Shown here: positions 26,628 to 59,654 of the stretch, in pieces
How the letters are laid out: each line of letters begins with the position of its first letter
How positions within the stretch are numbered: position 1 is the first letter of the stretch
Source of the DNA: Bdellovibrionales bacterium
Lineage (GTDB): Bacteria > Bdellovibrionota > UBA1018 > CAIMNF01
DNA: 64,000 nucleotides
Assembly (NCBI GenBank): GCA_947372355.1
Contig: CANBTI010000001.1
Coordinates: forward strand, 18,296 to 82,295
Reading direction: 5' to 3'
The notes under the pieces: generated by a model
The model's input: only the letters and a program-made list of their open reading frames with translations
The model's database searches: none
What the model was told of the DNA's origin: nothing
Translations under genes and position numbers: made by a program

Positions 26628-27830
26628 ATGGATTTACAATTCCGGCTTGCCACTACAGAAGATATTTTTAGACTAATTGAGTTATATCATGTGGTTTATC
26701 GCGGAACATACCCTGAACCTCTCATGAATCAATTTGGGGTGATGAAAAAGTTTTTAGAAGAACCGGGCTCTTATTGGTTCATAGCCGAAAACTCTAATTC
26801 AATTAAAAGCTCGCCCATCGTTGCTTCCGTTGCGGTAAGGTATGATGCAGAAAATCGTTTAGCAAAAGCATTTGGTGCTGCCGTACTAGATCAGCATAGA
26901 AGAGCTGGGCTCATGGAAAAACTTCTTTCCCATTGCATTGAATACATGCAAAAAAATACTGCCGGAGCTGATGTGGTCTATGCAACCACCAGAACCGTTC
27001 ACGAAGGAGCTCAGGCAGTTACTGATAAATTAGGTTTTAAAAAATTGGGAATTTTTCCCAACTCACACAAAAGCATCGATTACGAAACACATTGTCTTAC
27101 GGCTGCATTTTATAGAAATGCGATAGAAAACAGATTTCAAAATTACTCCCTACACGAAAAGCTTCGCGGTTTAGTAAAAATTGTTACTGAAGAAGTTTCA
27201 CAGATGGGTGAACTTAAGTTTATCATCCCTGATTTACCCAGCAAAATCTTAATCGAACCTCCTCATTTAGAACTAGTGACTTCAGAACATTTTGTAAAAT
27301 ATCGATATGAAAAACTGAAAAAGGAAAAGGAGTTACAGTTTGCTTTCTTTCCTTTTCACGAGCCAAACACATTGATCCTTAGTCCTGATCAATCAATTGA
27401 AATTTTTTGCTACCACTCTCCCGGTGATGCTTATTCAGTTATCGTTGGGGGTAAGGTAGACAATTCGATTAACTATAGTTCTCTTTTTAATACAATCGCC
27501 AACCTACTGAGAGATCATCAAGCGAGATATGTAGAAATTTTAGTTCGTGCAGATAAACCAAAGATTATTGATTCATTTTTAAAAGCAAAATTTATTCCAA
27601 GCGCATTTTTCCCTGCGTTTCAACTCCATGAAGGCAAAAGATATGACTATGTGGTGATGAATAAAACTTTTGAAATTTTTGATTTTCAGAATATTAGTTT
27701 AAAAGGTCTAAATCAAAAATATTTAGAAGAATATTTTAATCACTGGAAACAAAGTTCTTTAAACCCAAAAATGCTTCAACAACTCTCTACTCATCCTCTC
27801 GAAGCGTATCATCATCGGTCTCAGGAATAG
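26628..27830 (+). CDS. GNAT-family N-acetyltransferase-like protein (about 400 aa, probably two domains)
   Basis: The N-terminal 150 aa have a GNAT-like pattern (FRLATTEDIFRLIELYH ... AENSN...VASVAV...RRAGLMEKLL). Confidence 0.4.
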   Translation: MDLQFRLATTEDIFRLIELYHVVYRGTYPEPLMNQFGVMKKFLEEPGSYWFIAENSNSIKSSPIVASVAVRYDAENRLAKAFGAAVLDQHRRAGLMEKLLSHCIEYMQKNTAGADVVYATTRTVHEGAQAVTDKLGFKKLGIFPNSHKSIDYETHCLTAAFYRNAIENRFQNYSLHEKLRGLVKIVTEEVSQMGELKFIIPDLPSKILIEPPHLELVTSEHFVKYRYEKLKKEKELQFAFFPFHEPNTLILSPDQSIEIFCYHSPGDAYSVIVGGKVDNSINYSSLFNTIANLLRDHQARYVEILVRADKPKIIDSFLKAKFIPSAFFPAFQLHEGKRYDYVVMNKTFEIFDFQNISLKGLNQKYLEEYFNHWKQSSLNPKMLQQLSTHPLEAYHHRSQE

Positions 27831-30330
27831 CCGTTTGAGTAGTTACACCAGCAGCGTCTGTTCCTGTGGTAATTGATCTTGTGCTTCCAGGTTCAGTTCC
27901 GGCGATAAAAGCTTCTTTAATTGAGCGTGCTCCATCAGATCTTTTTCCTGTTTTTGAATCAATATTTACAAATGTAATTCCATCAGGAATTGCAAAGTCA
28001 TCCATGGGATAATCTTTCAAAACATTTTGCATATATTTTGTCCAAATAGGTAAGGCTGTTCCAGCGCCGGTTTCACCGTGACCCATTGAACGTTGATCAT
28101 CGTAACCCACCCAAACACCTGTCACTACTCGAGGTGAAAATCCAATAAACCAACCATCTCGGAAATCTTGAGTCGTTCCAGTTTTTCCAGCAACAGGTCT
28201 ACCCAACACATTTGCTTTTGCAGCTGTACCGAACTGAACCACTTCTTTCATTAAGTGAGTCATGACATAGGCAACTCTTGGATCGAGTCTTTGTCCTTCG
28301 ATCATTGGATAGTATTGAGCTTGATCCTTTTTAACTTCCTTTTTCTCTCCCTCGGGAGTGGGCGTAGCTACTGCAACTTTTTCAGAGTTTGTTTCTAAAA
28401 CTCTTCCGTCACGATCTAGAATTTTTTCAAACATGACTCCTTGGAAGTTTTTTCCCTGAAGTGGAAATGCTGTAAAAGCCTGAACCATATCTTGAACGGA
28501 TGCGTTTGCTGAACCCAGTGAAATAGATAAATCAGCATTAAATGGACCCTCAAGCCCCAATCTTTTAGCAGATTCAATTACAGTAGAAACTCTTACGTCC
28601 TGAACAATTTTAATCGTTGGAATATTTCTAGAGTTAATTAATGCTTGTCTAAAAGTAGTGTCTCCATAAAATTTTTCTTCGTAATTTTCTGGTCTCCAAG
28701 TTCCATTTTCTGCATCTTCAAAAACCACAGGAGAATCAACAATAATACTTGCTGGAGTGAATCCTTTCTCTAAGGCTGTTGCATAAATAATGGGTTTAAA
28801 TGTAGAACCCACTTGCCGTTTTGCTTGAATCGCACGATTAAATTGTGATTGTCCGTAATCATAACCACCAACCATTGCTAAAATTTGTCCTGTTTGAACA
28901 TCGACAGAATACAAAGCGCCTTGAATTTCAGGAATTTGAATTAATCTAGCCTTCCACCCATCTCTACTATTTGAAATTGCCTTAACCCAAACAACATCAC
29001 CCTCGTGAAGAACGTCGGATATTTGTTTGGGAATTTTAGAAATTGCATCAGCAGGATGCGCCCAAAGAACCTGATCAAATGGGATATATACTTGAGTTAA
29101 TCCAATGTTTGCATAGGCCATTTTTTTATCTGGCAACACCTGGGTAACTACTGCTTTAAATTTTTTTCCTGCAATTGTCTTTTCATAATTTGGATCAAAT
29201 TCCTGAATTGCCGACTCTAAATCCAAAGTTCCTTCTTCAATTAAATATCGATAAGGAAATAATTCGTGAGTTAACTCTTTCTTTGCATCCGCCTTAAAAA
29301 CTTCTCGTTCTTTTGGATTGAGATTTTTAATGGGGCCTCGGTAACCTTTTCTTTGATCAAAATCCTCAAGACCCTCTTCCATCGCTGAAGTTGCATATTC
29401 GTAATACTTTATTCCCGCGGGTACCACTACAGTGAGTGCCTCTTCATATAGCGCTTTTTCACCATACTTTTGAGATAAGTGTCTGCGTAAATGCTCTACA
29501 AAATGGGGCGCAAGCTTTTGTTCGGTTCCATCATTGACATAAATCTTTACGCGTTCCGTGCCGGCTTTTTTCTGTTCCGCTTCATTGATGTATTTGTTTT
29601 CTCGCATTCTTTTTAAAACATAAAGTTGTCGTTCTTTAGCTTTTTTCGGATTGAGAAGGGGGGAGTACTTTCCAGGAGCCGTTGGCAATCCTGCAATTAA
29701 TGCCATTTCTGCGATGGAAAGTTTTTTTACATCCTTATGAAAATATGTTCTTGCTGCTGCCTGAACGCCATAAGATCCACTACCAAGATAAATCTGATTT
29801 AAATACAGATACAAAATCTCTTCTTTGGTAAGTGCTTTTTCTAATTGAAACGCTACAAAAAGCTCTCTTACCTTTCTAATGATATTCCTATCTGGACTAA
29901 GATATAATGATTTTGCAATTTGTTGTGTAATGGTACTTCCACCTTGAACCACTTGTCCTGCTAAAAAGTTTGCAACGGCTGCTCTTGCAATAGCTAAAAA
30001 ATTTACGCCCTGATGTTCAAAAAAAGTTGAATCTTCTGCCGATAAAAAAGCTTGAACCAATTTTTGTGGAATTTGATCGTACGGAGTGAGGTATCTTTTT
30101 TCTTTATAGAACTCCGCCATCACTTTTGTTTGTCCGTTTTCGATGGAGACAATTTGAGTTACTCCGAGTGGTCGATAATCTGAAACTTTATTAATTTCTG
30201 GCGAGTCTTGAGAAATCTTTTTATATACATAAAAAGCTGCACCAACGCCAACAACAGCTAGACACATTCCAATAAATATAATGGATTTGAGACTTACTTT
30301 AATTGAGAACTTTTTCTTTAGTCGAGCCAT
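27787..30330 (-). CDS. mrcA: Penicillin-binding protein 1A (bifunctional glycosyltransferase/transpeptidase)
   Basis: GT51 motifs (EDSTFFEHQGVN, GGSTITQQIAKS). Transpeptidase motifs STFKP, SRN, KTGTT. Confidence 0.9.
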   Translation of the reverse strand: MARLKKKFSIKVSLKSIIFIGMCLAVVGVGAAFYVYKKISQDSPEINKVSDYRPLGVTQIVSIENGQTKVMAEFYKEKRYLTPYDQIPQKLVQAFLSAEDSTFFEHQGVNFLAIARAAVANFLAGQVVQGGSTITQQIAKSLYLSPDRNIIRKVRELFVAFQLEKALTKEEILYLYLNQIYLGSGSYGVQAAARTYFHKDVKKLSIAEMALIAGLPTAPGKYSPLLNPKKAKERQLYVLKRMRENKYINEAEQKKAGTERVKIYVNDGTEQKLAPHFVEHLRRHLSQKYGEKALYEEALTVVVPAGIKYYEYATSAMEEGLEDFDQRKGYRGPIKNLNPKEREVFKADAKKELTHELFPYRYLIEEGTLDLESAIQEFDPNYEKTIAGKKFKAVVTQVLPDKKMAYANIGLTQVYIPFDQVLWAHPADAISKIPKQISDVLHEGDVVWVKAISNSRDGWKARLIQIPEIQGALYSVDVQTGQILAMVGGYDYGQSQFNRAIQAKRQVGSTFKPIIYATALEKGFTPASIIVDSPVVFEDAENGTWRPENYEEKFYGDTTFRQALINSRNIPTIKIVQDVRVSTVIESAKRLGLEGPFNADLSISLGSANASVQDMVQAFTAFPLQGKNFQGVMFEKILDRDGRVLETNSEKVAVATPTPEGEKKEVKKDQAQYYPMIEGQRLDPRVAYVMTHLMKEVVQFGTAAKANVLGRPVAGKTGTTQDFRDGWFIGFSPRVVTGVWVGYDDQRSMGHGETGAGTALPIWTKYMQNVLKDYPMDDFAIPDGITFVNIDSKTGKRSDGARSIKEAFIAGTEPGSTRSITTGTDAAGVTTQTAIPETDDDTLREDE

Positions 30331-37743: not shown

Positions 37744-38280
37744 TTACTGAAAACTGTCTTTAACTTTATTTAACTTGGTGCGAACTGTGCCATCGTAGGT
37801 TTTTTCACCTACAGTTACTCTTAATCCTGCAATTAAACTTGGATCTACTTTTTCTTTTAAATGAACTTTTTTATTCATTTTTTTAGAAATTGCCATTTCA
37901 ATTGAATTCACTGTTCCTGCGTCCAATGGAATCGCACTAACAACTTCGCCAATTAATCCACCGCTTTTTTGAACTTGGATCGATTCAACTTCAGCTAAAA
38001 TAGAACCAAGAATCCCTAATCTATTGCGCTTAATTAACATCGAAATAAATTTTTCAGAAATCGGAGATAAATTCATTTTTTGAGAAAACAATTTTAGAGC
38101 ACCTTGTTTTTCGTCGTCACCCAAAACAGGGTTATCAAAAACTTTAATCATCAATGGAGATTCAACTGCTAGCTTTGAAAAGGCATCAAGCTCTTTAATT
38201 ACGGATTCCATCGAAAACTTAGATCCCGGAGCGGATAAAACATCCACTAATACCTGTGAATAAAGTCTAATCGCCTTCAT
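37744..38280 (-). CDS. atpH: F1 ATP synthase delta subunit (OSCP)
   Basis: 178 aa. Position between atpF and atpA. Typical delta C-terminal pattern. Confidence 0.8.
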   Translation of the reverse strand: MKAIRLYSQVLVDVLSAPGSKFSMESVIKELDAFSKLAVESPLMIKVFDNPVLGDDEKQGALKLFSQKMNLSPISEKFISMLIKRNRLGILGSILAEVESIQVQKSGGLIGEVVSAIPLDAGTVNSIEMAISKKMNKKVHLKEKVDPSLIAGLRVTVGEKTYDGTVRTKLNKVKDSFQ

Positions 38281-38744
38281 GCTGAAACCTCTTTCACAAA
38301 CTGCTCATTAATTCCTTTATGAGTTTGTTCATTAAGTCCTGCTTTAACTTTTTCTTCTACTAAGCCAATGATTTGTCCTGCAATGCTTTTGGTCACTTGC
38401 TCGCGGATTTGAACTTCTAAAGATTTTCTATTTAGCTCTGCTTCAGTATTCATTTGGGCAATAATTTTAACTGAAGAATCTTTAATCTCTTTTACCTGAG
38501 ATGCTTCGCGCTCTTTCCAATCAGAAAATACAATCTCTTTTTCTTTTTGAAGGTTTGCAAATCTAGCTTCAATCTCTTGTTTTTTACTGTTTGCAGTAGC
38601 CGTTTGTACTTTAGCTTTATTTAATCCTTCGCTCACTTCTTCAAAGCGAGTTTTCATAAACTTCACAAAAGAATCTTTTGTTTTATAAATAATAAAAGCG
38701 AGAAGCCCAAAAAGATGAATAGCCGGGAGTAATAGTTTTTCCAT
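38277..38744 (-). CDS. atpF: Fo ATP synthase b subunit
   Basis: Single N-terminal TM helix followed by a long charged helix. Start taken at MEKLLLPAIHLF. Confidence 0.7.
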   Translation of the reverse strand: MEKLLLPAIHLFGLLAFIIYKTKDSFVKFMKTRFEEVSEGLNKAKVQTATANSKKQEIEARFANLQKEKEIVFSDWKEREASQVKEIKDSSVKIIAQMNTEAELNRKSLEVQIREQVTKSIAGQIIGLVEEKVKAGLNEQTHKGINEQFVKEVSA

Positions 38745-38745
38745 T

Positions 38746-39186
38746 TTATTTTCCTGCCAATACCTTTTGAGTAATTGTTTCTGCCATTGAAGCAACTTGA
38801 GTTTTTAACTCTGATTCAACCTTTGTTGCATCACCTTGAAGTTGATCAAAAACTTTTTTATATTCTTTTTTAAGCTCTTCTTTGTGCTTTAAAAGAGCCG
38901 CATCCTCTTGTGATCTTGCATTAGTTAACGCTTGATCGTGTTGAGATTTTGCCTCTGTACGAATTTGTGAAAGTGTTTTTTCGTATTCACTTATTTTTAG
39001 CTCTACTGCTTTTAAAAGTTCAGTAGCTCCTTCAACATCATTTTTTAAACTTTGGTTACGTTTTTCGATGATTTTTTGAAAGGGCTTTAAATAGATGGCG
39101 GAGAGTGCAACAAAAAAAATCGCAAAAAGTGCGAATTGAATTAGAAATGTATTATTAACTTCAAGCTGCTCAAGTATTTCGTTCAT
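38746..39186 (-). CDS. Fo ATP synthase b' subunit (second b-type subunit)
   Basis: Same architecture as atpF (TM helix plus charged helix) but a distinct sequence. Confidence 0.65.
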   Translation of the reverse strand: MNEILEQLEVNNTFLIQFALFAIFFVALSAIYLKPFQKIIEKRNQSLKNDVEGATELLKAVELKISEYEKTLSQIRTEAKSQHDQALTNARSQEDAALLKHKEELKKEYKKVFDQLQGDATKVESELKTQVASMAETITQKVLAGK

Positions 39187-39293
39187 GTTGGTTCAACCAT
39201 GCTATCAGCTCTTATTTATTGAGCTTTTTTTATTAAAAAATTGAATAGGTTGTCCAGTTAGTTATCATGGGCTCTCAGAAGCGGTCAAGAAAG

Positions 39294-39656
39294 TTATCTC
39301 ATTTTGTTGGTGCCTTCAAAGATCACACCCTCTTCAACCTTTAAACTTGGCGTACTCATTTCACCGCGAAATATTGCAGGCTTTCTGATTTCAACACGGT
39401 ACTTTGCGTTAATTTCTGCCTCAACTCTGCCATAGATAATGACCACGCCTGCGTGAATTTGTCCCTCAACGCGCCCAGACTCTCCAACCACAAGTACATC
39501 TGGTGTTTCAATTTTTCCTCGCAGCGTTCCATTAATATGAAAGCAACCGCTGTAAGCCAAAGTTCCTTCGAACACTGCATTAGAGTCCAAAACTCCAGTG
39601 ACCTGATCAGCAACAACTTCTGGAACGATGAAATTTTCTAGCTTAAAATTTGCCAT
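39294..39656 (-). CDS. Bactofilin-family cytoskeletal protein
   Basis: 120 aa with a beta-helical repeat pattern (FEGTLAYSGCFHINGTLRGKIETPDVLVVGESGRVEGQIHAGVVIIYGRVEAEINAKYRVEIRKPAIFRGEM), typical of DUF583/bactofilin. Lies 4 nt downstream of parB. Confidence 0.7.
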   Translation of the reverse strand: MANFKLENFIVPEVVADQVTGVLDSNAVFEGTLAYSGCFHINGTLRGKIETPDVLVVGESGRVEGQIHAGVVIIYGRVEAEINAKYRVEIRKPAIFRGEMSTPSLKVEEGVIFEGTNKMR

Positions 39657-39659
39657 GAC

Positions 39660-40658
39660 CTATCGAGCATCTCCTAAAAGCAAAGATACAATTCGATTCA
39701 TTTCCTCTAAAGATGAAAAGTGAATTTTCACTTCTCCTGATTTTTCACCCTTCACTTCAACTTTGGTCATATATTTACGAGTTAATAATTGAGTGAGACG
39801 CATGGTATCTGGATTAATTCCAATTCCAGCACTTTTTTTGGTTTCTTGTTTTTTAGGTGCGATAGCAGCCTTTTTTTCTTGGGCTGTTTTTTCAGTTTGT
39901 CTTACGCTTAGATTTTTTTCTAAAATCTCTTTCGCTAATCCTTCACGCTCACTGGTGTCTTCGATAGATAAAAGCGCCTTAGCGTGTCCGCGAGATAGGT
40001 TGCCTTTTTTTAATTGTAATAAAATGAAATCAGAAAGTTTTAGAATACGTAATGCATTTGCAATTGTTGCACGATCTTTACCCATTCTTTTCGCGAGATC
40101 TTCTTGAGACAATTGAAATTCTTGCATCAATTGAAAATAGGCAAGTCCTTCATCTACACAATTTAAATCTTCGCGTTGAATGTTCTCAACAATTGCTAGC
40201 TCTAAAGCCTCACGATCCGTGCTTTTTCTCATCACTACAGGCACTGTTTTTAGTCCTGCAATTTTTGAAGCTCTCAATCGACGCTCGCCCGCAATCAACT
40301 CATACTGCTCACCGTTTTTTCTAACGATGAGTGGTTGAATTAATCCGTTTTCACGAATGGATTGAGCAAGCTCTTGAAGTGCAGTTTCATCAAATTCGCG
40401 ACGTGGCTGAAATTCATTTGCTTTAATTTCATCTACACCAATCACCGAAATGCCCATGTGACGATCACGGTTTAAACCCGGTTGTTCGTTAGGATCAACA
40501 TTCGGTCTGCCGAGTGGGGTGGAATTTAAAATCACTGAAGCTGAATTCATAGAATTCGGACTAGTTGCGCTTGTGGATCCAGGAAATAAAGACGCTAATC
40601 CCTTACCTAGAACTGATTTGTTTTGATTTAAATTATTATTTTGTTTTGGAGTTTCCAT
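39660..40658 (-). CDS. parB: Chromosome partitioning protein ParB (Spo0J)
   Basis: ParB box LIQPLIVRKNGEQYELIAGERRLRAS plus an HTH region. Confidence 0.9.
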   Translation of the reverse strand: METPKQNNNLNQNKSVLGKGLASLFPGSTSATSPNSMNSASVILNSTPLGRPNVDPNEQPGLNRDRHMGISVIGVDEIKANEFQPRREFDETALQELAQSIRENGLIQPLIVRKNGEQYELIAGERRLRASKIAGLKTVPVVMRKSTDREALELAIVENIQREDLNCVDEGLAYFQLMQEFQLSQEDLAKRMGKDRATIANALRILKLSDFILLQLKKGNLSRGHAKALLSIEDTSEREGLAKEILEKNLSVRQTEKTAQEKKAAIAPKKQETKKSAGIGINPDTMRLTQLLTRKYMTKVEVKGEKSGEVKIHFSSLEEMNRIVSLLLGDAR

Positions 40659-40663
40659 ACTGC

Positions 40664-41473
40664 TTAAGCCCCTAATTCAGGTGTAAATGTTGATTTTTGA
40701 ATTTCATGCGTTTTAGTCAGAACTTCGCGCGCAAGATCTAGGTAAGCCGTGCAGCCCTTTGAGTTCACATCATAAAGAATGATTGGTTTACCAAACGAAG
40801 TGCATTCGCTGAGTTTAATATTTCTAGGAATTACCGTTTTAAAAACGAGCTCACTAAAATGAGTTCTCACTTCTTTTTCTACTTCATGACTTAATTTTAA
40901 TTGAGAGTTAAACATGGTTAAAACAATGCCTTCAATTTCAAGTGTAGGATTTACACTTTGGCGAATTAATCCAATGGTAGTCATCAGTTGCCCCAAGCCT
41001 TCTAATGCAAAGTATTCTGCTTGTAGTGGAATAAGAACTGAATCCGCTGCGGTTAAAGCATTTACAGTGAGAAGCCCTAAAGTTGGGGGGCAATCAATAA
41101 AAATGTAATCGTATTTGCTTTTCACTTCTTGAAGTGCAGCTTTTAATTTTCCTTCTCTCGCAAACGCGCCTACCAATTCAACTTCGGCTCCTGCTAAGTG
41201 TGGGTTGGCTGGCAATAAATCTAAGTGATCAATTTCAGTGGCACGGATTGCATTCGCAATTGCAACCTCACCCATCAACACATGGTAAGTGGTTGCTCCT
41301 CCGTCTTCAATATTTGGACTCACTCCAACCGATGAAGACGCATTTCCTTGTGGATCAAAATCTACGAGCAAAACTTTTTTATCTGCGAGTGAAAGTGATG
41401 CGGCTAAATTTACTGTGGTGGTTGTTTTTCCCACTCCGCCCTTTTGATTTACGACTGCAATAATTTTTCCCAT
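40664..41473 (-). CDS. parA: Chromosome partitioning ATPase ParA (Soj)
   Basis: Deviant Walker A KGGVGKTTT. About 269 aa. Confidence 0.9.
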   Translation of the reverse strand: MGKIIAVVNQKGGVGKTTTTVNLAASLSLADKKVLLVDFDPQGNASSSVGVSPNIEDGGATTYHVLMGEVAIANAIRATEIDHLDLLPANPHLAGAEVELVGAFAREGKLKAALQEVKSKYDYIFIDCPPTLGLLTVNALTAADSVLIPLQAEYFALEGLGQLMTTIGLIRQSVNPTLEIEGIVLTMFNSQLKLSHEVEKEVRTHFSELVFKTVIPRNIKLSECTSFGKPIILYDVNSKGCTAYLDLAREVLTKTHEIQKSTFTPELGA

Positions 41474-41554
41474 GCTTTACCTCTGTATATATATGAGCCG
41501 GGCGTATATTCCGGAGAACCGTTTCTACATCTAATTGCTCATAATCTAAATCAC

Positions 41555-41601
41555 AAAAACAAAAAGGGGGCTGGCTTGTCATATAGACGAGCTCAAGCCC
41601 C
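41555..41601 (-). terminator. Rho-independent terminator after rsmG
   Basis: Minus-strand sense: GGGGCTTGAGCTCGTCTATATGACAAGCCAGCCCCC followed by TTTTTGTTTTTG. Confidence 0.5.
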
Positions 41602-41760
41602 GATTGATATTGTCCATCGCATTATTGTGACTCCCAGGAAAATCTTCAATAATTAAGTGTGGTTGCGGTGAGGATCAATATTGCTAACCAAATTTTTTAC
41701 TGCTTATGGGAAAATTCTACCTATTATTTTATGGATATCAATAGAAAAGATTATCCATTA

Positions 41761-42429
41761 TTACTTTTTTTTAAGATTAATCAAAATTCTGTATTTGTCG
41801 CCGGAAGAGTACTCTTGTGAATGACTAACCGTCAATTTTTTGCCGAATCTACTTAATTGAGCTTCTTTCCACTCTTCAGACCAGCCCTTACTCTTAAATA
41901 AAATGAAATTGTTCCACGTGGAACAATTAGAAATCCATCCTGCTATCTTCTCTACCGTACCTACAGCTCTAGCAATAATAGTGTCAGGCTCAATTTCGTT
42001 AATGACCAGTTCCACCCTTGAGGAAGAAACTAATACATTTTTCAATCCCAACTCTGCGGCCGCATTTACCAAAAATTCAGCCTTCTGAGTTTCAGAATCA
42101 CACAAAAACCACTCTCTACCCTCTTCTAAATCAATAGAGGCCGCCAAAAGGCCAGGAACACCACAACCAGAGCCGATATCTAGAACAGCATCACCTAAAG
42201 TTTCCATTTTAAATAGCTCTAATACATCGATCAAATGGCCATCTATAAAATCATTTACACCCAAAATTCTTGTTAAATTTTGTATCTCATTTTCTCGGTG
42301 TAAAATTTCAGCAAATTTACTTGCACGAAAAACCTGCTCCGGCGTCAGGCTGAATTGTTTTTGATCAATTCTAGTTTGGATAGCCTTTGAAAACTGTTCT
42401 TGAGACGGGGTACTTGATTCAGTAATCAT
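41761..42429 (-). CDS. rsmG: 16S rRNA m7G527 methyltransferase RsmG (GidB)
   Basis: SAM motif VLDIGSGCGVPGLLAA. Overlaps the mnmG stop. Confidence 0.85.
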   Translation of the reverse strand: MITESSTPSQEQFSKAIQTRIDQKQFSLTPEQVFRASKFAEILHRENEIQNLTRILGVNDFIDGHLIDVLELFKMETLGDAVLDIGSGCGVPGLLAASIDLEEGREWFLCDSETQKAEFLVNAAAELGLKNVLVSSSRVELVINEIEPDTIIARAVGTVEKIAGWISNCSTWNNFILFKSKGWSEEWKEAQLSRFGKKLTVSHSQEYSSGDKYRILINLKKK

Positions 42430-44342
42430 GACTTAATTTGCTCGATCCTATTTATGTGCTTATTTTTAATGAAAATCATCAAATTTGCTACTGCAGCGGG
42501 AGTTACTCCGGATATACGAGACGCTTGGCCAATATTTTCAGGGCGTGTTTCTAATAATTTACTTTTAATCTCGTTTGATAAACCAGGAACAATTTTATAA
42601 TCAAATGAAGTTGGTATTTTCATGAGTTCAGCGTTACGAACTCCTTCAAGCAACTGAAGATCCTTTTCGATATATCCATTATACTTAATTTGAATTTCAA
42701 CTTGCTCAAGAACTGAAAAATTAATTTCATCAGTTACAAACCCAAGCTTAGCAAGAATTGAAAAATTAACTTCTGGACGTCTTAACAAGGCCTCAGCGGA
42801 AATGCGGTCTTTAATTTCTGTTAGTCCTAGGCCAGTAAAAAGTACATTAGTGGCAAGAGTTGGATAAAAGTAAAAACTAGAAATTTCTGATTTCAGCTTT
42901 TCAATTTTAGAAAATTTAATATCAAAAATATTCTTTTCACGATCACCCAACATTCCAACCTGAATGGCGCGAGGTGAAAGTCTTAGATCTGCATTATCTT
43001 CACGAAGAAGAAGTCTATATTCTGCGCGCGACGTAAACATGCGATAAGGTTCATCTGAACCCTTCAAAATAAGATCATCAATCATGACCCCAATGTATCC
43101 CTCATGACGCGATAAGATAAATTCTGGTAAACCCAAAGTATAATGAGCTGCATTAATTCCTGCAATAATCCCCTGACCCGCCGCTTCCTCATAACCAGAA
43201 GTTCCATTCACTTGGCCTGCGAAGAAAAGACCAGGAACGTCCTTGCATTCTAGAGTTCCCTTTAGCTGCCTTGCGTCAACAGAGTCATACTCTACTGCAT
43301 ATGCATATCTAATAAATACGGCTTTTTCTAAACCAGGAATTGAATGAACAAACTCTTCCTGCACTTCAATCGGGAGAGAAGTAGAAATTCCATTTACATA
43401 AATTTCATCCACATCTAAACCCTCAGGCTCTAAAAAAAGCTGATGGCGATCTTTATCTTTAAAACGTGAAATTTTATCTTCTATAGAAGGACAATAACGT
43501 GGACCAATGCCAGTAATTGCTCCGCTATACATTGCCGACAAACCAATATTTTTTTCAATAATGTCGTGTGTAGTTTGATTGGTATAAGTTAAATAACAAT
43601 TTACTTGAGGAAGCGCAGGGTAAACATCTGCTCCATGGTAAAAAGAAAAAGGAAGTAAAACTTCATCACCTGGTTGTGGAGTGGTAACGGTCCAATCGAT
43701 TGAATCTTTATGCAGTCTTGGTGGTGTGCCTGTTTTAAGACGACGAAGACTTAACCCTAAGATTTTTAAATCTTCACTCAGAGTTTTAGAAGATTTATCT
43801 CCTAGTCGTCCGCCCTCTTCTTGCTCTTTCCCCCTGTGCATGATCGCACGTAAAAAAGTTCCTGAAGTGATGACCACTGATTTTGCGCGAATTTCACCTG
43901 TATATTCTGTGCTAGAAATTTTAACGCCTAAAACTTGTTTTATACCCAAATCATTATTTTCAATGATGAGACCACTCACTTCTCCCTCAATAATCTCCAA
44001 ACCAGGAAGAGACTTCAAAAGAGATTGCATATTTTCAGCGTAAAGTTTTTTATCGCACTGGGCGCGCGAAGAGCGAACGGCCGGACCTTTGCTAGAATTC
44101 AATCTTCTAAATTGGATGGTTGATAGATCGGTGATTCTTCCCATCACGCCACCAAGTGCATCAACTTCTTTTACCATTTGGCCTTTAGCTAATCCGCCGA
44201 TGGCTGGGTTACAAGACATTGCACCAATCTTGTTTTGATCAAGTGTGATCATAGCAGTGCGCGCACCTAATGTAGCGGCAGCATTTGCAGCTTCACATCC
44301 AGCGTGACCGCCTCCAATAACAATAACATCGTAATATTTCAT
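42426..44342 (-). CDS. mnmG: tRNA uridine-5-carboxymethylaminomethyl modification enzyme MnmG (GidA)
   Basis: FAD motif YDVIVIGGGHAGCEAA. 638 aa. Confidence 0.95.
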   Translation of the reverse strand: MKYYDVIVIGGGHAGCEAANAAATLGARTAMITLDQNKIGAMSCNPAIGGLAKGQMVKEVDALGGVMGRITDLSTIQFRRLNSSKGPAVRSSRAQCDKKLYAENMQSLLKSLPGLEIIEGEVSGLIIENNDLGIKQVLGVKISSTEYTGEIRAKSVVITSGTFLRAIMHRGKEQEEGGRLGDKSSKTLSEDLKILGLSLRRLKTGTPPRLHKDSIDWTVTTPQPGDEVLLPFSFYHGADVYPALPQVNCYLTYTNQTTHDIIEKNIGLSAMYSGAITGIGPRYCPSIEDKISRFKDKDRHQLFLEPEGLDVDEIYVNGISTSLPIEVQEEFVHSIPGLEKAVFIRYAYAVEYDSVDARQLKGTLECKDVPGLFFAGQVNGTSGYEEAAGQGIIAGINAAHYTLGLPEFILSRHEGYIGVMIDDLILKGSDEPYRMFTSRAEYRLLLREDNADLRLSPRAIQVGMLGDREKNIFDIKFSKIEKLKSEISSFYFYPTLATNVLFTGLGLTEIKDRISAEALLRRPEVNFSILAKLGFVTDEINFSVLEQVEIQIKYNGYIEKDLQLLEGVRNAELMKIPTSFDYKIVPGLSNEIKSKLLETRPENIGQASRISGVTPAAVANLMIFIKNKHINRIEQIKS

Positions 44343-44359: not shown

Positions 44360-44770
44360 CTACCGCTGAGGTGCATTTTTGTCGATGTAATTGATTATTT
44401 CTTCGAGAGTAGTTCCGGGAGTAAAAATCATATGAGCTCCGGCTTCTTTCAGAGAATCAAAATCTTCTTCGGGAATAATTCCACCCACTAAAAAGAGAGT
44501 GTCATTCATACCTGCGGATCTTACCCCATTGATCACTTCTGGGACGAGGGCATTATGGGCACCAGAAAGTACACTGATTCCAACTACATGGGCGTCTTCT
44601 TGAATGGCAGCCTGAACGATCATTTCGGGCGTTTGGTGTAATCCAGTATAAATCACTTCAAATCCGGCATCTCTCAAAGCTCTGGCAATCACTTTGGCGC
44701 CTCGATCATGCCCATCTAGGCCTGGTTTAGCGATTAAAACTCTGATTTGGTTGCGTTTATTCATTTCCAT
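44360..44770 (-). CDS. Acyl-CoA mutase B12-binding small subunit (IcmB/MutA-like)
   Basis: 136 aa. Contains the DxHxxG cobalamin-binding motif ([10 protein letters not shown]), SVLSGAH and GGIIP. Confidence 0.75.
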
Positions 44771-44806
44771 AACCTACCGAAATCTTTAGGAAAAATCAAT
44801 TTTAAC

Positions 44807-44851
44807 AAAAAAATAGGTTAAGTATATGTAATTATTACACAAACTTAACCT
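44807..44851 (-). terminator. Rho-independent-terminator-like hairpin between the mutase large- and small-subunit genes
   Basis: Minus-strand sense: AGGTTAAGT-loop-ACTTAACCT followed by TATTTTTTT. Confidence 0.45.
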
Positions 44852-45121
44852 ATATTAGTCTCCCCTGAATTTCTGGAGGAGAGCCTGAGCCAATGGCAGC
44901 AATAATAGGAAAAGTAATAACTCACCCATTGTTCCCCACTTTCTCTGTGGCAAAACTAAACCATCAACACATTATTATAATTCTTAATCAGCAATGCTTA
45001 TGCCAAAGAGTAAAAAAATATTTCGGAAACATTACAATTGTTTTATGAGGTGCGTAACGAGTTATCCAATTAAGAGACGTTTAAATAACTATTATGCACC
45101 AGTGCGATTTGAACTAATGAC

Positions 45122-46777
45122 TTAGAATTTACCGTCTTCTCGATATTCTCCATACACACCACGAAGAGTGTCGCAAACTTCTTGGAGGGTAGAATAAACT
45201 TTAACCGCTTCTAAAATTGAAGGCATCAAATTCACACCTTTTTCAGCTGCTTCTTTCACATCGGAAAGACACTTTTTAACAGCAACGTTATCGCGACGAG
45301 CTTTAAGCTCTTTTAGTTTTTGAATCTGCTTTTCTCCAACAGTGCGATCAATGTACAATGTTCCCATTGTTCTTTTCGCTTCTTGTTGTTGAAATTTATT
45401 CACTCCAACCATTACCTTTTCTTTACTCTCTAATTGCCTTTGAAAACGATAAGCACTATTTGCGATTTCAGATTGAGGATAACCATTTTCAACTGCTTTA
45501 ACCATTCCACCCATTTCATCGATTTTATCAATATAGGCGAGAGCATCTTTTTCAACTTTATTGGTGAGATATTCAACCAGATAAGAACCACCTAGTGGAT
45601 CTGCAAAATTAGCTACCCCACTTTCTTCAGCAATGATTTGTTGTGTACGAAGCGCAATCACCACGGCTTCATCGGTAGGTAGGGCTAAGGTTTCATCCAT
45701 TGAATTTGTATGAAGTGAATTTACACCTCCCAAAACACCTGCCATTGCTTGAACAGCAACACGAACAATATTGTTCATTGGTTGTTGAGCCGTTAAAGAA
45801 ACTCCTGCTGTTTGAGCGTGAGTGCGAAGCATCCATGATTTTGGATTTTTAGCTCCGTATTTATCTTTCATTTTTCTAGCCCAAATTCTGCGAGCTGCAC
45901 GAAATTTAGCAATCTCTTCAAAAAAATCATTATGAACATCAAAAAAGAAACTTAATCTTGGAGCGAATTCATCAATATCCATTCCACGCTTTACTGACTC
46001 TTCAACATAAGCCAATCCATCTGCCAACGTGAAGGCTAGTTCTTGGACAGCTGTCGCTCCGGCTTCACGAATATGGTAACCAGAAATTGAAACTGTATTC
46101 CAATTTGAATAATGTTTTGTTCCATATTCAATTGTATCAATCACACATTTAACTGCTGGAGCAATTGGGAAAAGCCACTCTTTTTGAGCAATGTATTCTT
46201 TTAAAATATCATTTTGAAGAGTTCCGCGAACCTTTTCTTTTGGAACACCTTGTTTTTCAGCCATTGCATAGTACATGGCAAGAATTACAATTGCTGGTCC
46301 GTTGATGGTCATCGATGTAGTCACATCACCAAGCGGAATACCCGCAAATAACCTTTCCATATCTTCTAAAGAAGAAACAGAAACACCACATTTGCCTACT
46401 TCTCCCAGTGATTTTGAGGAATCACAATCGTATCCCATTAATGTTGGCATATCAAAAGCAGTGGATAAGCCTGTTTGACCTTGTTCTAATAGCAATTTAA
46501 AGCGTTTATTGGTTTCATCTGGAGATGCAAAACCTGCAAATTGGCGCATCGTCCAGAGTTTTCCACGATACATATTATGCTGAACACCGCGAGTAAAAGG
46601 AAACTCGCCTGGCAAACCAAGATCCTGATCAACATTGAAATTAATTTTTTCTAAATCTTCCGGAGTGCAAAGAAGTGGAACTTCCATGTCGCTCAAGGTG
46701 GTAAACCGCTCAGGGCGTGGCGGAGATTTTTTTTCAATTTCAGCTTTTTTCTTTTCCCACTCTGCACGCTTACTCAT
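45122..46777 (-). CDS. Acyl-CoA mutase catalytic (large) subunit; isobutyryl-CoA-mutase-like signature
   Basis: Methylmalonyl-CoA-mutase-family TIM barrel ([25 protein letters not shown]...). The positions that align to MCM Tyr89/Arg207 appear to be Phe (RQFAGF) and Gln (YIAQKEW). No C-terminal B12 domain (it is split). Confidence 0.7.
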
Positions 46778-53768: not shown

Positions 53769-53918
53769 TTATTTACCAGCAACAGTAGGAACGAGGCGTT
53801 TACGGCCGCGAGCACGACGACGAGCTAATATTTTTTTTCCACCGGCAGTCGCTAAACGAGTGCGGAAGCCATGGGTGTTAGTTCTCTTCTTACGAGATGG
53901 TTGATACGTACGTTTCAT
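53769..53918 (-). CDS. rpmH: 50S ribosomal protein L34
   Basis: Manually translated (below the ORF-track size cutoff): [49 protein letters not shown]. Confidence 0.9.
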
Positions 53919-54002
53919 AGTCGTAATGACTTATCGGATAAGTGGCCTCATTGTCAATCCCACAAGTTCATGTTAGTTAAGTACGTCGCAGGTAGTATAA
54001 CC

Positions 54003-55466
54003 ATGAATGATTTAAATCTTTGGGCAACAGCATATCGTCAGATTCTCCAAAACCACGCAAATCCAACCGAAATGAAGTTTTGGCTTGATGCGTTAAATTG
54101 GGGTAAGCTCGAACCTATGGCTTCTGGTAAGGTGCATATATTTCTCACAGCACCCAGCGTATTTTATGCAAACTTTATTAATCAACAATTTAAGGCCGAA
54201 ATCGAGAGCGCTACCTCTCAAATTTTAGGTAAATCCTGTGAAGTTTCAATCGCCGTATTAGAATCTAAGCCCGCTGAAGAAGTAGAAGAAGCAATTATAT
54301 CTATCAGTAATACTTCAGTAAATAACACTTTTGAAAACCCTTTGTCTCCACCTACCGCTTCTGATTTTACTCCAGCAATGGCTCAATCTAATCAAAGTTC
54401 CCCTTCTCCAGGTTTTGTGAATCGTGGATCTCATAAATCAAATGTAATCATTAATGATTTTTTAGACCCAACTTTAACCTTTGATAACTACATCATGGGG
54501 CCTTCAAATCAATTTGCTTATGCATCCGCTTTTTCAACTTCAGAAAAACCAGCCGTTCAATACAATCCACTTTTTATTTATGGCCCTCCAGGAGTTGGAA
54601 AAACCCATCTATTGCATGCTTTAGGTAATCAAATAAAAAAGAAAAATCCTCATATTCGGGCTTATTTTGTTTCGGCTGAAAAATTTGTGAACGAATTTAT
54701 CGAAAGCATACAACATAAAAATCCAGGCGATTTTAGGGCTAAATACCGCGATAATGTTGATCTTCTTCTCATCGACGATATTCAATTTATCGTGGGTAAG
54801 GATCGTTCAGAAGAAGAGTTTATCCATACCTTCAATACATTACACAGTCTTAAAAAAATGATTGTTCTTACTTCTGATAAAGCGCCAAAAGACATCGATG
54901 GTTTAGAGGACCGAATTCGTACTCGTTTTGAAATGGGACTGGTTGCTGATATTCGCCCGCCAGAAATTGAAACTCGCATTGCAATTTTAAAAGCAAAAGC
55001 GGAAGCAGACGACATGTATTTGCCAGATGATGTTGCAACATTTTTAGGTACCTATGTAAAAGATACGGTCAGAAACCTTCATGGTGCTTTAGTAAAGCTT
55101 CAACAATATGCTTCACTCACAGGCTCAGAAATAACTTTAGATTTAGCTAAGCAAGTTTTACAAAACTCCATTCCTGAAGAAGGACAAGAATACACAGTTG
55201 AAATAATACTCAATGCTGTTTGTAAGCACTTTAATCTTAAGATGAAAGAACTAAAGGGAACATCCAGAGCAAAACAGTTTTCTATGCCTCGCCAAATTGC
55301 CATGTATCTGATTAGAAAATACGCAAATTTAGGATTTAGAGAAGTAAGTCAGATTTTTGACAAAGATCACTCCACCGCAGTTCATGCTTATCAAAAAATC
55401 GAACTGGAGATGGAATCTGACCCTGAACTAAAGAGAAATGTGGAAACCATTAGAGAGCAGCTGTAA
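54003..55466 (+). CDS. dnaA: Chromosomal replication initiator DnaA
   Basis: AAA+ Walker A GPPGVGKTHLLHA, sensor motifs, and a C-terminal DNA-binding domain. Start taken at MNDLNLW. The ORF-track N-terminal extension runs antisense through rpmH and is rejected. Confidence 0.9.
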   Translation: MNDLNLWATAYRQILQNHANPTEMKFWLDALNWGKLEPMASGKVHIFLTAPSVFYANFINQQFKAEIESATSQILGKSCEVSIAVLESKPAEEVEEAIISISNTSVNNTFENPLSPPTASDFTPAMAQSNQSSPSPGFVNRGSHKSNVIINDFLDPTLTFDNYIMGPSNQFAYASAFSTSEKPAVQYNPLFIYGPPGVGKTHLLHALGNQIKKKNPHIRAYFVSAEKFVNEFIESIQHKNPGDFRAKYRDNVDLLLIDDIQFIVGKDRSEEEFIHTFNTLHSLKKMIVLTSDKAPKDIDGLEDRIRTRFEMGLVADIRPPEIETRIAILKAKAEADDMYLPDDVATFLGTYVKDTVRNLHGALVKLQQYASLTGSEITLDLAKQVLQNSIPEEGQEYTVEIILNAVCKHFNLKMKELKGTSRAKQFSMPRQIAMYLIRKYANLGFREVSQIFDKDHSTAVHAYQKIELEMESDPELKRNVETIREQL

Positions 55467-55596
55467 AAAGCGTCAAATTAGCCACATTAATCAAATAAAC
55501 TATAATAAAATAAAATAATTTCATTTAAATTTCTTACAAAACGTAAGAACCTATTATTAGGCCTGGGGCGCAAGGATGCTTCACGGGAGGATAATT

Positions 55597-58500
55597 TTGG
55601 TTTCAAGGATGAAGATTTTTAAAAAAGTTTCTACACTTTTCTCAGTGTTATTCATAACTCTGAGCCCTTCTACGTCCTTTGCTAACTGGACACGTTATCA
55701 AAATTATAAAATAAAATTAGACGTTCCAACAGGCTGGAAAATTGAGCGTGATCTTTTTGGAATGCCAATTACCGTATTGGGTCCTGAAAGAAATGGAGAG
55801 CGTGCAGTACTGAGTGTTCAGCACACCCCCGTTTTTGGTTTAGAATTTAATCATCAAAATATAGTTAAAACTAAAAATCAATACTATGAAGGAAGAAAAA
55901 AATGGGTTGATTCACTTGAAGACGCTTCTTTTTTAAGTGAAATTCCATACCAACACATAAAGCAAGAAAATGGGAACGACGGCTTTGAAATGGGTTTTAG
56001 ATACCATGTCAGAAACCTCGACTTAGAAGAAAAAAGTATTCAATTGAATTGTGGAAATCGACTTTTTTTAATTAAAACTCTTTCAAGCAATAAAATTCCT
56101 GAAGCAGATACCGCTCAATTAGCAAAATTAGTGAATGAGTTAGATTGCGTTTCTACCACTTCAAAAGATGGCGCTTATGAACCAAGCGTTCTTCAAGATT
56201 TTGATCGTAAATTTAAGGATCAAATATCTGGAACTTCACCTTGGCCTACAAAAGAGCAAATTAAAGATTCTGGCACACCTGAAAAAGCAGTCATGCTTGA
56301 AGCATTGGTAGAGTTCTATAAAAATTACGAAAATTCTGGAGGAGAAGATTCTTATTCATACAATCGTAATCCAGTTAAAGATCAATATTTTGCAAAAATT
56401 AAAGATAGAACAGATCAAATTTTTTCAATCTTCTTATCTAAAGCGTCTGCAAAAGATGGTTATGATTGTTTTTTTGGTGGTTGGCCAAGTAAATTTATAA
56501 AAAAGAATGGTGTAGCTACCTGTGGTTATCCATGGGAAACAAATTCAGATTATTCAAAAAACAATTCTGGCTGTGGAGAAGGAAAACTAGGCTGTAACCC
56601 TTCTCTATTTGGATCAAATATTTGTGTTGATGTAAGCAATAGCGGCGAACGATCACATGCTACTCTTTCTTGCGAAATGGGTTTTCGCTCTAGTGGTAAA
56701 AGTTACGAAGATGTTGTTAAATCAGCTGATTTTGATCAATCCGTTCTAAATAACACTCTAAACTCAGCAAAAGAAGTGTGCAGTCAGGAACCATATACCT
56801 CAGCAAATTATGGTTTATGTTCAACCCTTAAAGAAAAATTAGGAATCAGTATCTCATCCGGAAAACATGCTCAAGATGAATCCGATGTAAAATTTATTAA
56901 TGGCATGGAAGAAATGAAGCCAGAAAATTTTGATGAATATGTAAAGGCTACAGAAAAAAACTATAAAGAATTTGAAGCTCGATGCATCGACGAAAAGGGT
57001 GATCTTAAAACAAATGTTGAAGGATGTTTAGAGGATCATTTAGCCATTTTAAATGACTTAGAAAAAATTGATAAAAGATCAAAAGATATTGGGCAAGAAT
57101 TACAAGAAGAAGATGCACCAAACTCAATCAATAATGGAAATTGTTCAAAGGCAGACTGTAGTTCACCCACTGTTGAAAGTGTTCAACCTAAAAAGGATGA
57201 ACCATCAAATGGTAAGTGTTCAGTTCAAGAGGAAAAAAGAAAAAAAGAAAAAGAATGTAATTGGTCTAAGGGTATGTTCATGGCAGGAAGTTGTGCTTGG
57301 AATGTAATCACTTCAATGGTGAGTTCATTGTGGGGAACAATCAAAGCAATAGGTGAGCTTGCGTGGGATGGTGTGAAGTGGGTTGGGAATAAATCTGTTC
57401 AGGGTGCCAAATGGCTTGCTAGTTTGGTTGGTTATGAAGATGAATCATCTAAAAAATTAAATACAGCTGCACAAACGAGTAATAGCGCAATTGAATCTTT
57501 CAAAAAAGATCCAATGGGATCTGCTATCAATTTTTTCAAAAGTATCTATGATGGTGTTGTAAATTTTGTTTCTACTGATGTTGCCTGCGAAAAATGGTCT
57601 GGCGTTCCACACAATTCAACATGTTTATTGCCTGCAAGTGGTTGGAAATGTATGCCTTGCATGGATCGAATGGATACCGTTTGTTCAACAGTAGGATATG
57701 TTGCGGCTGAATTTCTACCTGCTTTCTTCACCGGTGGAGCAACTTCTGCTTTAAAAGGATCTGCAATCGCTGCAAAAGTAGGTGGATATCTTGGTAAAGT
57801 GAGTAAGCTGGGGAAACTCACTCGACTAGAAGCTGATATTATAAAACTTACGAGTAAAGCAACTAAAGTAGAAAGATACGGCTTAAGAGCAGCTAAATAT
57901 GAATCAGAAGTTTTAAAAGCAGAAATCGGTATTGCTGGAAATTTAAGTAAAACACAAAAAATTATTGGAAAAGTTTATAATGTAAGCCGCTGGCCAGTTA
58001 AACAATTCAATAAAATAAAGAGTGCATATACCCGTGCAAAAAATGTATTAACTGGGTTTAAATCTAAGGCCTTTGGTTCTGTTAAAAATACAATTGAAGG
58101 ATTACAGAGACTACGAAAAAAATATTATGTTGTTAAAGCTGGTTCATGGGTAGTTGAAAACACTGTTGTTCAACCATTAAAATTAGCAGCAAAAATAGCA
58201 ACCGCTCCTATTCGTTATCCAATGAGATGGACAAATAGTTATGTCAGGACACAAGCGAAGATATATAAGGTAGGACTAAGATTTGGAGAAAAAAGATTTA
58301 ATGATGTGTTGGTAAAATCAGCAAGCATGAGTAAGTATCCAACCTTAGCTAAAAACATAGCTTTATATAGCTCTATTTCTAAATATCCTGCATTTGGCTC
58401 TCATATGTTGGATGAGTTTAGAGAAAGACTCAGCATGAAAGATGATAACAATCCAAATATGTTTTGGAAATCATCCCATGAAATTGAAGTACAAGCTAAA

Positions 58501-59121: not shown

Positions 59122-59654
59122 AAACAATACTGTCAATTTTATTAGTCATCTGTGGTGCAAAAGCATTTGGTGAATCTAAAAATTACAACATTCAAAATCA
59201 AAAAATTACGATTGATGTGCCAACAGGATGGAAAGATGTTGAAGATTTTGCTGGCAGTCCACTCACCTTTTTTGGGCCTGAAAATAAAGACGGACCAAGA
59301 ACAGTAGTAACCATTTCACCAACTGGACAAGAAGATAAAAATCATTTTTTCGCTGATATGAAAAAAAATATCGCTGGTTATAAAGTTGGACGTGAGGATT
59401 GGTTAAAAGGGAATTTTGGAACCTCCATTTCTTACGATAAATATAAGGAAGAAAAATGGACTGGGATAGAAGTAGCTCGCGAATTTGGTTATCATTACGA
59501 ACTACCAAGCGGAAAGTTTTATGAAAGATCCGTTTATGTGATGTGCGGTGGTAATAAACTTGTGTACATCAAATCATTAGTTCCAGAACAGTTTGAATCA
59601 ACTCATAATTCGTTAGTAGAAAAATCAATTAAAAGCTTAGGGTGCGCAAAATGA
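59118..59654 (+). CDS. Secreted small protein paralogous to the N-terminal domain of cassette gene A (cassette gene B)
   Basis: Signal peptide MKTILSILLVICGAKAFG. Shares DVPTGWK..GPE..C-G-N-L..IK-L...LGC blocks with residues about 40-190 of gene A. Its start overlaps the gene A stop (ATGA). Confidence 0.55.
   Translation: MKTILSILLVICGAKAFGESKNYNIQNQKITIDVPTGWKDVEDFAGSPLTFFGPENKDGPRTVVTISPTGQEDKNHFFADMKKNIAGYKVGREDWLKGNFGTSISYDKYKEEKWTGIEVAREFGYHYELPSGKFYERSVYVMCGGNKLVYIKSLVPEQFESTHNSLVEKSIKSLGCAK

Follow-up and report, generated by a model that had tools for sequence, protein, structure and literature searches.

The subject of this analysis is a bactofilin gene, together with the partition genes that precede it, in a stretch of 64,000 nucleotides (nt) from contig CANBTI010000001.1 of an uncultured Bdellovibrionales bacterium (assembly GCA_947372355.1); the whole of this 64-kb stretch is referred to as the window. 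On the minus strand the genes run in the order mnmG, rsmG, parA, parB, bactofilin, atpF', atpF, atpH, atpA, atpG, atpD, and atpC. The bactofilin gene is probably the last cistron of an origin-proximal parS-parA-parB unit; its likely counterparts are bd3904 in Bdellovibrio bacteriovorus and bacM in Myxococcus xanthus, the window itself coming from an uncultured Bdellovibrionota lineage. The features of the locus are as follows.

44342-42426, minus strand: mnmG, upstream neighbour of rsmG
42429-41761, minus strand: rsmG, with a 287-nt spacer to parA
41910-41925, palindromic, no strand assigned: parS-like perfect palindrome TGTTCCACGTGGAACA (AATTGTTCCACGTGGAACAATT in the window), within the 3' portion of rsmG and some 440 nt ahead of parA
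41714-41741, minus strand: candidate par promoter, sigma-70-like, TTGATA-16-TAGAAT, in the 287-nt rsmG-parA spacer, with 10/12 consensus matches
40664-41473, minus strand: parA, chromosomal partition ATPase of 269 residues
39660-40658, minus strand: parB, 332 residues, after a 5-nt spacer from parA
39294-39656, minus strand: bactofilin gene, 120 residues, after a 3-nt spacer from the parB stop
39263-39288, minus strand: promoter-like motif TTGACC-N15-TGATA, 5 nt past the bactofilin stop, in the 107-nt spacer
38746-39186, minus strand: atpF', b-type ATP synthase subunit (PF00430), first gene of the atpF'-F-H-A-G-D-C operon

The junction between parB and the bactofilin gene reads ...CGA TAG gtc ATG GCA, with the bactofilin ATG beginning at the fourth nt past the parB stop. 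This agrees with the tight linkage described in the initial annotation of this DNA, and the 3 nt on this side of the gene compare with 107 nt on the side of atpF'. An origin-proximal position had also been proposed, and this is borne out by the proximity of dnaA (53871-55466, plus strand), which lies 12.4 kb from the start of parA and 14.2 kb from that of the bactofilin gene, and by a cumulative GC-skew minimum at around 55 kb in the window.

The bactofilin and its partition neighbours

The 120-residue open reading frame (ORF) is a genuine bactofilin, as first annotated. Its translation matches the Pfam family PF04519 (Bactofilin) at 85.4 bits (E 3.2e-24), against a cut-off of 27.9 bits, with residues 22-116 aligned to positions 2-96 of the 98 in the profile; in a search of NCBIfam no model matched the ORF. 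Sequence matches in the PDB are to the Thermus bactofilin TtBac (6RIA, E 3e-11) and to Caulobacter BacA (2N3D, E 4e-8). An AlphaFold2 model built from 23 homologues has a mean predicted local distance difference test (pLDDT) score of 89.4 and consists of a beta-helix over residues 20-120, preceded by a disordered stretch of low confidence (residues 1-19). The best structural match of this model in Foldseek is 6RIB, with a template modelling (TM) score of 0.92 and a root-mean-square deviation (rmsd) of 1.1 A, followed by 6RIA (TM 0.90) and 2N3D (TM 0.88); the next matches have probabilities of at most 0.16.

The ORF is also under strong purifying selection. Against four relatives with 91-95% protein identity, the proportion of nonsynonymous differences (pN) is 0.03-0.05 and that of synonymous differences (pS) is 0.70-0.86, the synonymous sites being saturated. 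In the closest two loci the bactofilin shows higher conservation than the rest of the cluster, with 91-92% identity compared with 86% for ParA and 75-77% for ParB. A chance ORF is ruled out by the PF04519 match, by a pN far below pS, and by the fold match to 6RIB.

One residue, F113, is invariant across 23 aligned bactofilin sequences and aligns with F105 of TtBac, F130 of BacA, and F125 of BacM from M. xanthus. The substitution F130R abolishes the polymerisation of BacA (PMC12448750), and I124D/F125R disrupts BacM fibres (PMC4372379). Outside the domain the window protein is short, with a 21-residue N-terminus before it and a C-terminus that ends four residues past it with no tail. The N-terminus, MANFKLENFIVPE, begins MANFKLENF (MNY.L[ED].F in relatives), contains no lysine pair, and is acidic overall. 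The membrane-targeting consensus of bactofilins is MFSKKKK, in which a hydrophobic residue 2 is combined with two lysines (PMC12448750); a peptide of this type is not present in the N-terminus of the window bactofilin.

Judged from its sequence, the chromosomal ParABS system of the window is complete, with a predicted Walker-type ParA, a three-domain ParB, and an origin-proximal, conserved parS. ParA matches the Pfam family AAA_31 (E 1e-65) and also CbiA and ParA, with the Walker A motif KGGVGKT present in its translation. ParB carries the domains ParB_N, HTH_ParB, and ParB_C, scores 181 bits with TIGR00180 (parB_part), and contains the motif GERRLRA. When the 64-kb window was scanned in six frames with hidden Markov models (HMMs) and phmmer, ParA, ParB, and bactofilin were each detected once, and no PadC-like second ParB-fold gene came up. 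The parS palindrome is the only place where the 64 kb match the parS consensus when up to two mismatches are allowed. The exact 16-mer recurs at the equivalent position in 28 related loci, without any difference between those of Bdellovibrionota type and some of Myxococcota type, and several relatives have two copies about 160-220 nt apart. The candidate par promoter, a consensus match only, is the best sigma-70-like site within 38700-42500.

Conservation of the gene order and the boundary with the atp operon

A genome scan based on ParB returned 15 loci, 13 of them from Bdellovibrionota metagenome-assembled genomes (MAGs); these MAGs are labelled Bdellovibrionales, Oligoflexia, or Bacteriovoracaceae, apart from two bins among them that are apparently mislabelled. 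The order mnmG-rsmG-parA-parB-bactofilin-atpF'-atpF-atpH is kept in all 13 Bdellovibrionota loci, as far as the contigs extend. One Holosporales locus (L014) continues for only 0.7 kb past parB, and the lack of a bactofilin there was not counted as a negative. In CALPVV020000023.1 (L002, named 'Nitrosovibrio sp. Nv4') and CAMCGZ010000001.1 (L005, named 'Bdellovibrio sp. ZAP7') the proteins of the cluster are 71-91% identical to those of the window, and the Nitrosovibrio label of the former looks like a binning or naming error. Homologues at 61%, 58%, and 43% identity have the called-gene context ParB-bactofilin-ATP-synt_B, and spacers taken from called genes in relatives range from -13 to +30 nt.

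A metagenome scan with a bactofilin alignment returned 80 loci, which were annotated by tblastn with the window proteins, and parB lies directly upstream in 44 of the 59 assessable relatives. Clustering of all loci at 90% identity gave 64 clusters. The sample was picked by similarity to the window bactofilin, and the following counts thus describe this subfamily rather than all bactofilins or all parAB operons.

Metagenome relatives, at least 48% identity: parB upstream in 21/21 assessable, atp downstream in 12/12 assessable
Metagenome relatives, 37-47% identity: parB upstream in 23/38 assessable, atp downstream in 4/13 assessable
Clusters, at least 65% identity: parB upstream in 8/8, atp downstream in 7/7
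Clusters, 48-64% identity: parB upstream in 20/20, atp downstream in 18/18
Clusters, below 48% identity: parB upstream in 18/30, atp downstream in 6/14

Several distant loci keep parA-parB-bactofilin but have, in place of the atp genes, Mnh antiporter subunits, a transposase with an M49 peptidase, or cytochrome c peroxidase downstream. For one such locus (L095), proteins closely related to its bactofilin carry the names Myxococcaceae or Myxococcales, and among the distant loci only this group is tied to Myxococcota, via these named matches. Two named Myxococcota proteins are encoded in loci of the form mnmE/mnmG-rsmG-parA-parB-bactofilin, with no atp genes. The parA-parB-bactofilin order is conserved across Bdellovibrionota and Myxococcota whatever lies downstream, and it is this trio, rather than bactofilin-atp, that forms the conserved unit. 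The adjacency that the initial annotation expected to find in relatives is therefore present in the genome loci, in most of the metagenome relatives, and in the named Myxococcota loci. In a neighbour-joining tree, which is weak at about 100 residues, members linked to parB are found throughout the subfamily and enclose unlinked groups, a pattern that fits an old linkage to parB with later losses or duplications.

The alignment of spacers downstream of the bactofilin in Bdellovibrionota-type loci brought out the motif TTGACC-N14-16-TGnTA(G/A/C)C, which is found in 35 of the 40 bactofilin-atpF' spacers (5.2 kb in total; loci L001-L054). Outside these spacers, TTGACC-N14-16-TGnTA has 11 occurrences in 536 kb, and it occurs a single time in the window when both strands are read. 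A generic sigma-70 promoter scan did not detect the spacer motif, the -10 part of which is non-consensus. The motif is probably the promoter of the atp operon itself, with a -10 that departs from the consensus, and as a separate promoter it would leave the bactofilin as the last cistron of the par unit. No terminator turned up between the bactofilin gene and atpF' in a generic scan, which means that read-through into atp would be possible. That the bactofilin is the first gene of the atp operon is rejected on account of the 35 of 40 spacers that bear the motif, together with the par-linked loci that have no atp genes. At 38277-39186 (minus strand) the atp cluster opens with two b-type subunit genes, with no atpI, atpB, or atpE upstream. 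Of the two ORFs, the second lacks a Pfam match and in its listed form overlaps the first by 50 nt; its start has probably been miscalled.

Relatives that are not linked to parB adjoin a Ser/Thr kinase with PEGA domains, pentapeptide-repeat proteins, RodA/FtsW, adenylate cyclase, or an ISL3 transposase. In L061, L097, L098, and L021-L023, sister bactofilins of about 39-46% identity stand beside a Ser/Thr kinase with C-terminal PEGA domains, and parB is absent. The order in L061, L098, and L021 is kinase-PEGA, bactofilin, and then the atp operon, such that the link between bactofilin and atp survives without parB. An ORF of about 234-255 residues lies just downstream of the bactofilin, on the same strand, in L058, L067, L077, L090, L091, and L103; the three that were checked by Pfam (L067, L090, and L091) are pentapeptide-repeat proteins, and a protein of this kind may be an uncharacterised bactofilin partner. 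A bactofilin of 29% identity (L024, 2141-2757) has an M23 peptidase upstream and an AtpI-like protein (ATPase_gene1) downstream. The pairing of bactofilins with M23 peptidases is known, and L024 combines it with an atp neighbour.

Elsewhere in the window, dnaN is located at 62219-63322, leaving a gap of about 6.7 kb after dnaA. The two genes are usually adjacent and a separation of this size is unusual. The interval 55576-61762 (plus strand) is made up of three consecutive ORFs of 1181, 178, and 706 residues, none of which has a Pfam match at E<=1e-5. Rfam and tRNA scans of the 64 kb found nothing. A gene for a class A penicillin-binding protein, with transglycosylase and transpeptidase domains, lies at 27787-30330 (minus strand), about 9 kb from the bactofilin gene. 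Caulobacter BacA recruits an enzyme of the PBP1A type, and no link between the bactofilin and the penicillin-binding protein gene is seen in the window. Directly upstream of mnmG, methylmalonyl-CoA mutase is encoded at 44360-46777 (minus strand) as separate B12-binding (136 residues) and catalytic (551 residues) subunits, near genes for an acyl-CoA dehydrogenase and a 3-hydroxyacyl-CoA dehydrogenase.

Possible roles of the bactofilin

The bactofilin would be transcribed together with parAB, as suggested by the spacing of the genes and by a promoter-like motif that starts only past the bactofilin, and it would probably be translationally coupled to parB. The protein is expected to polymerise without nucleotide, via the hydrophobic ends of its beta-helix, and because it has neither an MFSKKKK-type membrane peptide nor a tail it would probably form cytoplasmic fibres, like mature processed BacM. 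By analogy, it may act as a BacM-like structural fibre that supports cell shape or a robust envelope, with its synthesis keeping pace with the par operon. This is the account that we favour, tentatively and in the knowledge that it could well be wrong, because BacM, the only tested bactofilin that adjoins parAB, affects shape and not ParA/ParB localisation or segregation. We do not think that the bactofilin is an obligatory part of the ParABS machine.

Several points weigh against a BacM-like role. The order parA-parB-bactofilin survives in two phyla even with the downstream genes replaced, and gene order that is independent of context in this way is the usual signature of functional coupling. 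The bactofilin is better conserved than any other protein of the cluster in the closest relatives (91-92% identity vs 75-77% for ParB). The segregation phenotype of BacM could be missing through take-over by its paralogues BacNOP, and PMC6985089 credits B. bacteriovorus with only one bactofilin homologue. For a bactofilin without the canonical membrane-targeting peptide, the positioning of envelope enzymes is a less obvious task. Finally, no functional experiment on any Bdellovibrionota bactofilin was found in the literature searched.

The initial annotation had pointed instead to a ParABS scaffold. On this view polymerised bactofilin would anchor or position ParB-parS, sequester ParA, or do both, at a particular site in the cell; the trio would be one segregation module, and a single protein would do the job of BacNOP-PadC in M. 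xanthus. Such a role is a serious alternative, though a somewhat less likely one. Bactofilins can organise ParABS, for which M. xanthus provides the precedent (PMC5703909), and the gene order fits, in that parB is directly upstream in 8/8, 20/20, and 18/30 of the assessable clusters from the highest identity band to the lowest, the trio is kept with Mnh antiporter, transposase, or cytochrome c peroxidase genes downstream, the par-bactofilin spacing is tight or overlapping, and the bactofilin is conserved as much as ParA and ParB or more. The missing membrane peptide would suit a cytoplasmic, nucleoid-side role, and the absent phenotype of BacM may reflect take-over by BacNOP. However, the annotation had merged two facts in its appeal to Myxococcus: bacM does adjoin parAB, whereas the ParABS scaffold, BacNOP with PadC, is encoded in a separate operon (PMC5703909). 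BacM, the sole bactofilin next to parAB to have been tested, is without effect on ParA/ParB localisation (PMC5703909) and is not needed for segregation (PMC3899335), and on these data the Myxococcus precedent argues as much against a ParABS role as for one. Moreover, the 64-kb window holds no PadC-like second ParB-fold gene, its bactofilin has no BacP-like C-terminal tail, and the mnmG-rsmG-parAB block represents conserved synteny of functionally unrelated genes near the origin. Since unrelated genes stay adjacent in this block, adjacency is weak evidence for a ParABS role. A more far-reaching version appears unlikely; it would make parS, parA, parB, and the bactofilin gene the four parts of an ancient segregation module, older than the divergence of Bdellovibrionota from Myxococcota. 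In such a module ParB-parS and ParA would have the bactofilin as their dedicated anchor or ruler, BacM would lack a phenotype because the duplicated BacNOP-PadC system later took over, and in single-bactofilin lineages, such as that of the window, the protein linked to parAB would still perform the function.

It is improbable that the bactofilin serves as a general polarity hub whose clients are of other kinds, for example factors for motility, pili, or division, and that its link to parAB does no more than time its expression to the cell cycle. The model for a hub is BacP, which recruits SofG. Bactofilins do act as multipurpose hubs (PMC5703909), the Bdellovibrio bactofilin is named as a polarity candidate in reviews, and members of the subfamily away from parB adjoin Ser/Thr kinase-PEGA, RodA/FtsW, and pentapeptide-repeat proteins; yet no client gene is adjacent in the window, and the protein has almost no terminal extensions with which to bind clients. 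Least probable by far is that the bactofilin belongs to the ATP synthase operon, or that it sits beside parB only through passive synteny near ori, the two being unlinked in regulation. The atp genes are indeed downstream in 12/12 assessable relatives at >=48% identity, some distant relatives (L061, L098, and L024) have bactofilin-atp without parB, and no terminator is predicted ahead of atpF'. Against this, co-transcription with parB has been demonstrated in B. bacteriovorus (PMC7186360) and M. xanthus (PMC3899335). A conserved promoter-like motif also separates the bactofilin from atpF' in 35/40 spacers, the distance is 3 nt to parB and 107 nt to atpF', and Myxococcota and other loci have parB-bactofilin with no atp downstream.

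Bdellovibrio-like bacteria segregate many chromosome copies along a filament, and how ParB-parS is anchored in them is the question behind the interest in this gene; the parAB-linked bactofilin is already a candidate in reviews. A predatory lifestyle, which the initial annotation had brought to bear on the function of the module, is here inferred only from affiliation with uncultured Bdellovibrionota MAGs. No systematic survey of par-bactofilin synteny was found in the literature searched. What the present survey adds is that the order of the trio in two phyla is independent of the downstream context, that the bactofilin is constrained as strongly as ParA and ParB, and that the atp operon has a conserved promoter-like element of its own right after the bactofilin. 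These additions better motivate deletion and localisation work on the bactofilin in B. bacteriovorus, and leave knowledge of the arrangement itself unchanged.

Comparison with known systems

That bactofilins organise ParA and ParB-parS has been demonstrated only for the bactofilin polymer of BacNOP with PadC in M. xanthus, where the scaffold is encoded together with padC in an operon separate from parAB (PMC5703909). It differs from the system described here in that it requires the ParB-fold adaptor PadC and in the long C-terminal tail of BacP; neither a second ParB-like gene nor bactofilin paralogues are found in the 64-kb window. TtBac (6RIA/6RIB) and BacA (2N3D) share the fold of the window protein, with TM scores of 0.88-0.92, an rmsd of 1.1-1.4 A, and 29-32% identity, and the interface phenylalanine is kept. 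They carry a membrane-targeting N-terminus of the MFSKxxK type, which the window protein does not, and they are not linked to parAB.

The only characterised bactofilin adjacent to parAB is BacM, which has a role in cell shape and none in segregation. The bacM gene (MXAN_7475) is immediately downstream of parAB (PMC5703909) and is co-transcribed with parAB and MXAN_7474 (PMC3899335). Deletion of bacM leaves ParA and ParB localisation unchanged (PMC5703909), and BacM is not required for segregation (PMC3899335). Two BacM peptides, HTLLGKG and DRGVIFEGSLKMENLG, were deduced from published mutagenesis primers (PMC4372379), and both are present in the recovered Myxococcota proteins, the longer one with up to two substitutions. 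The window bactofilin is 44% identical over 98 residues, the beta-helix, to a Myxococcota BacM-like protein, and the BacM interface residues L35 and I124/F125 correspond to L23 and I112/F113. The two belong to the same large subfamily, yet they fall into separate clades, with clades not linked to parB interspersed, in the weak neighbour-joining tree of about 100 residues. BacM-like proteins are about 150 residues long, begin with MALFGxKK, lose some 28 N-terminal residues by cleavage, and end in a proline-rich tail. The window bactofilin is a minimal form without MALFGxKK, the N-terminal extension, or the proline tail, and is nearer to mature processed BacM than to the precursor. The gene that follows bactofilins of the BacM type encodes a lipoprotein or another protein, whereas in the window the atp genes follow.

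The positional counterpart of the window gene in B. bacteriovorus HD100 is bd3904, which is co-transcribed with bd3906 (parA3) and bd3905 (parB) according to reverse-transcription PCR (PMC7186360). The authors of that study already proposed a Myxococcus-like role for Bd3904, the same gene map is drawn in PMC10547168, and in two reviews, one of them PMC6985089, the Bdellovibrio bactofilin is among the candidates for polarity or anchoring. When the gene maps are compared, the two bactofilins belong to the same phylum-level group and both lie directly downstream of canonical chromosomal parAB, near rsmG and parS. In B. bacteriovorus, however, an extra small gene, bd3907, lies between rsmG and parA where the window has the 287-nt spacer, and the window comes from an uncultured lineage of about 37% GC. 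The ParAB-bactofilin module is therefore not new, as both the arrangement and the same hypothesis have been published for B. bacteriovorus (PMC7186360, PMC10547168), and the window locus is a further example of a layout known in Bdellovibrio and Myxococcus.

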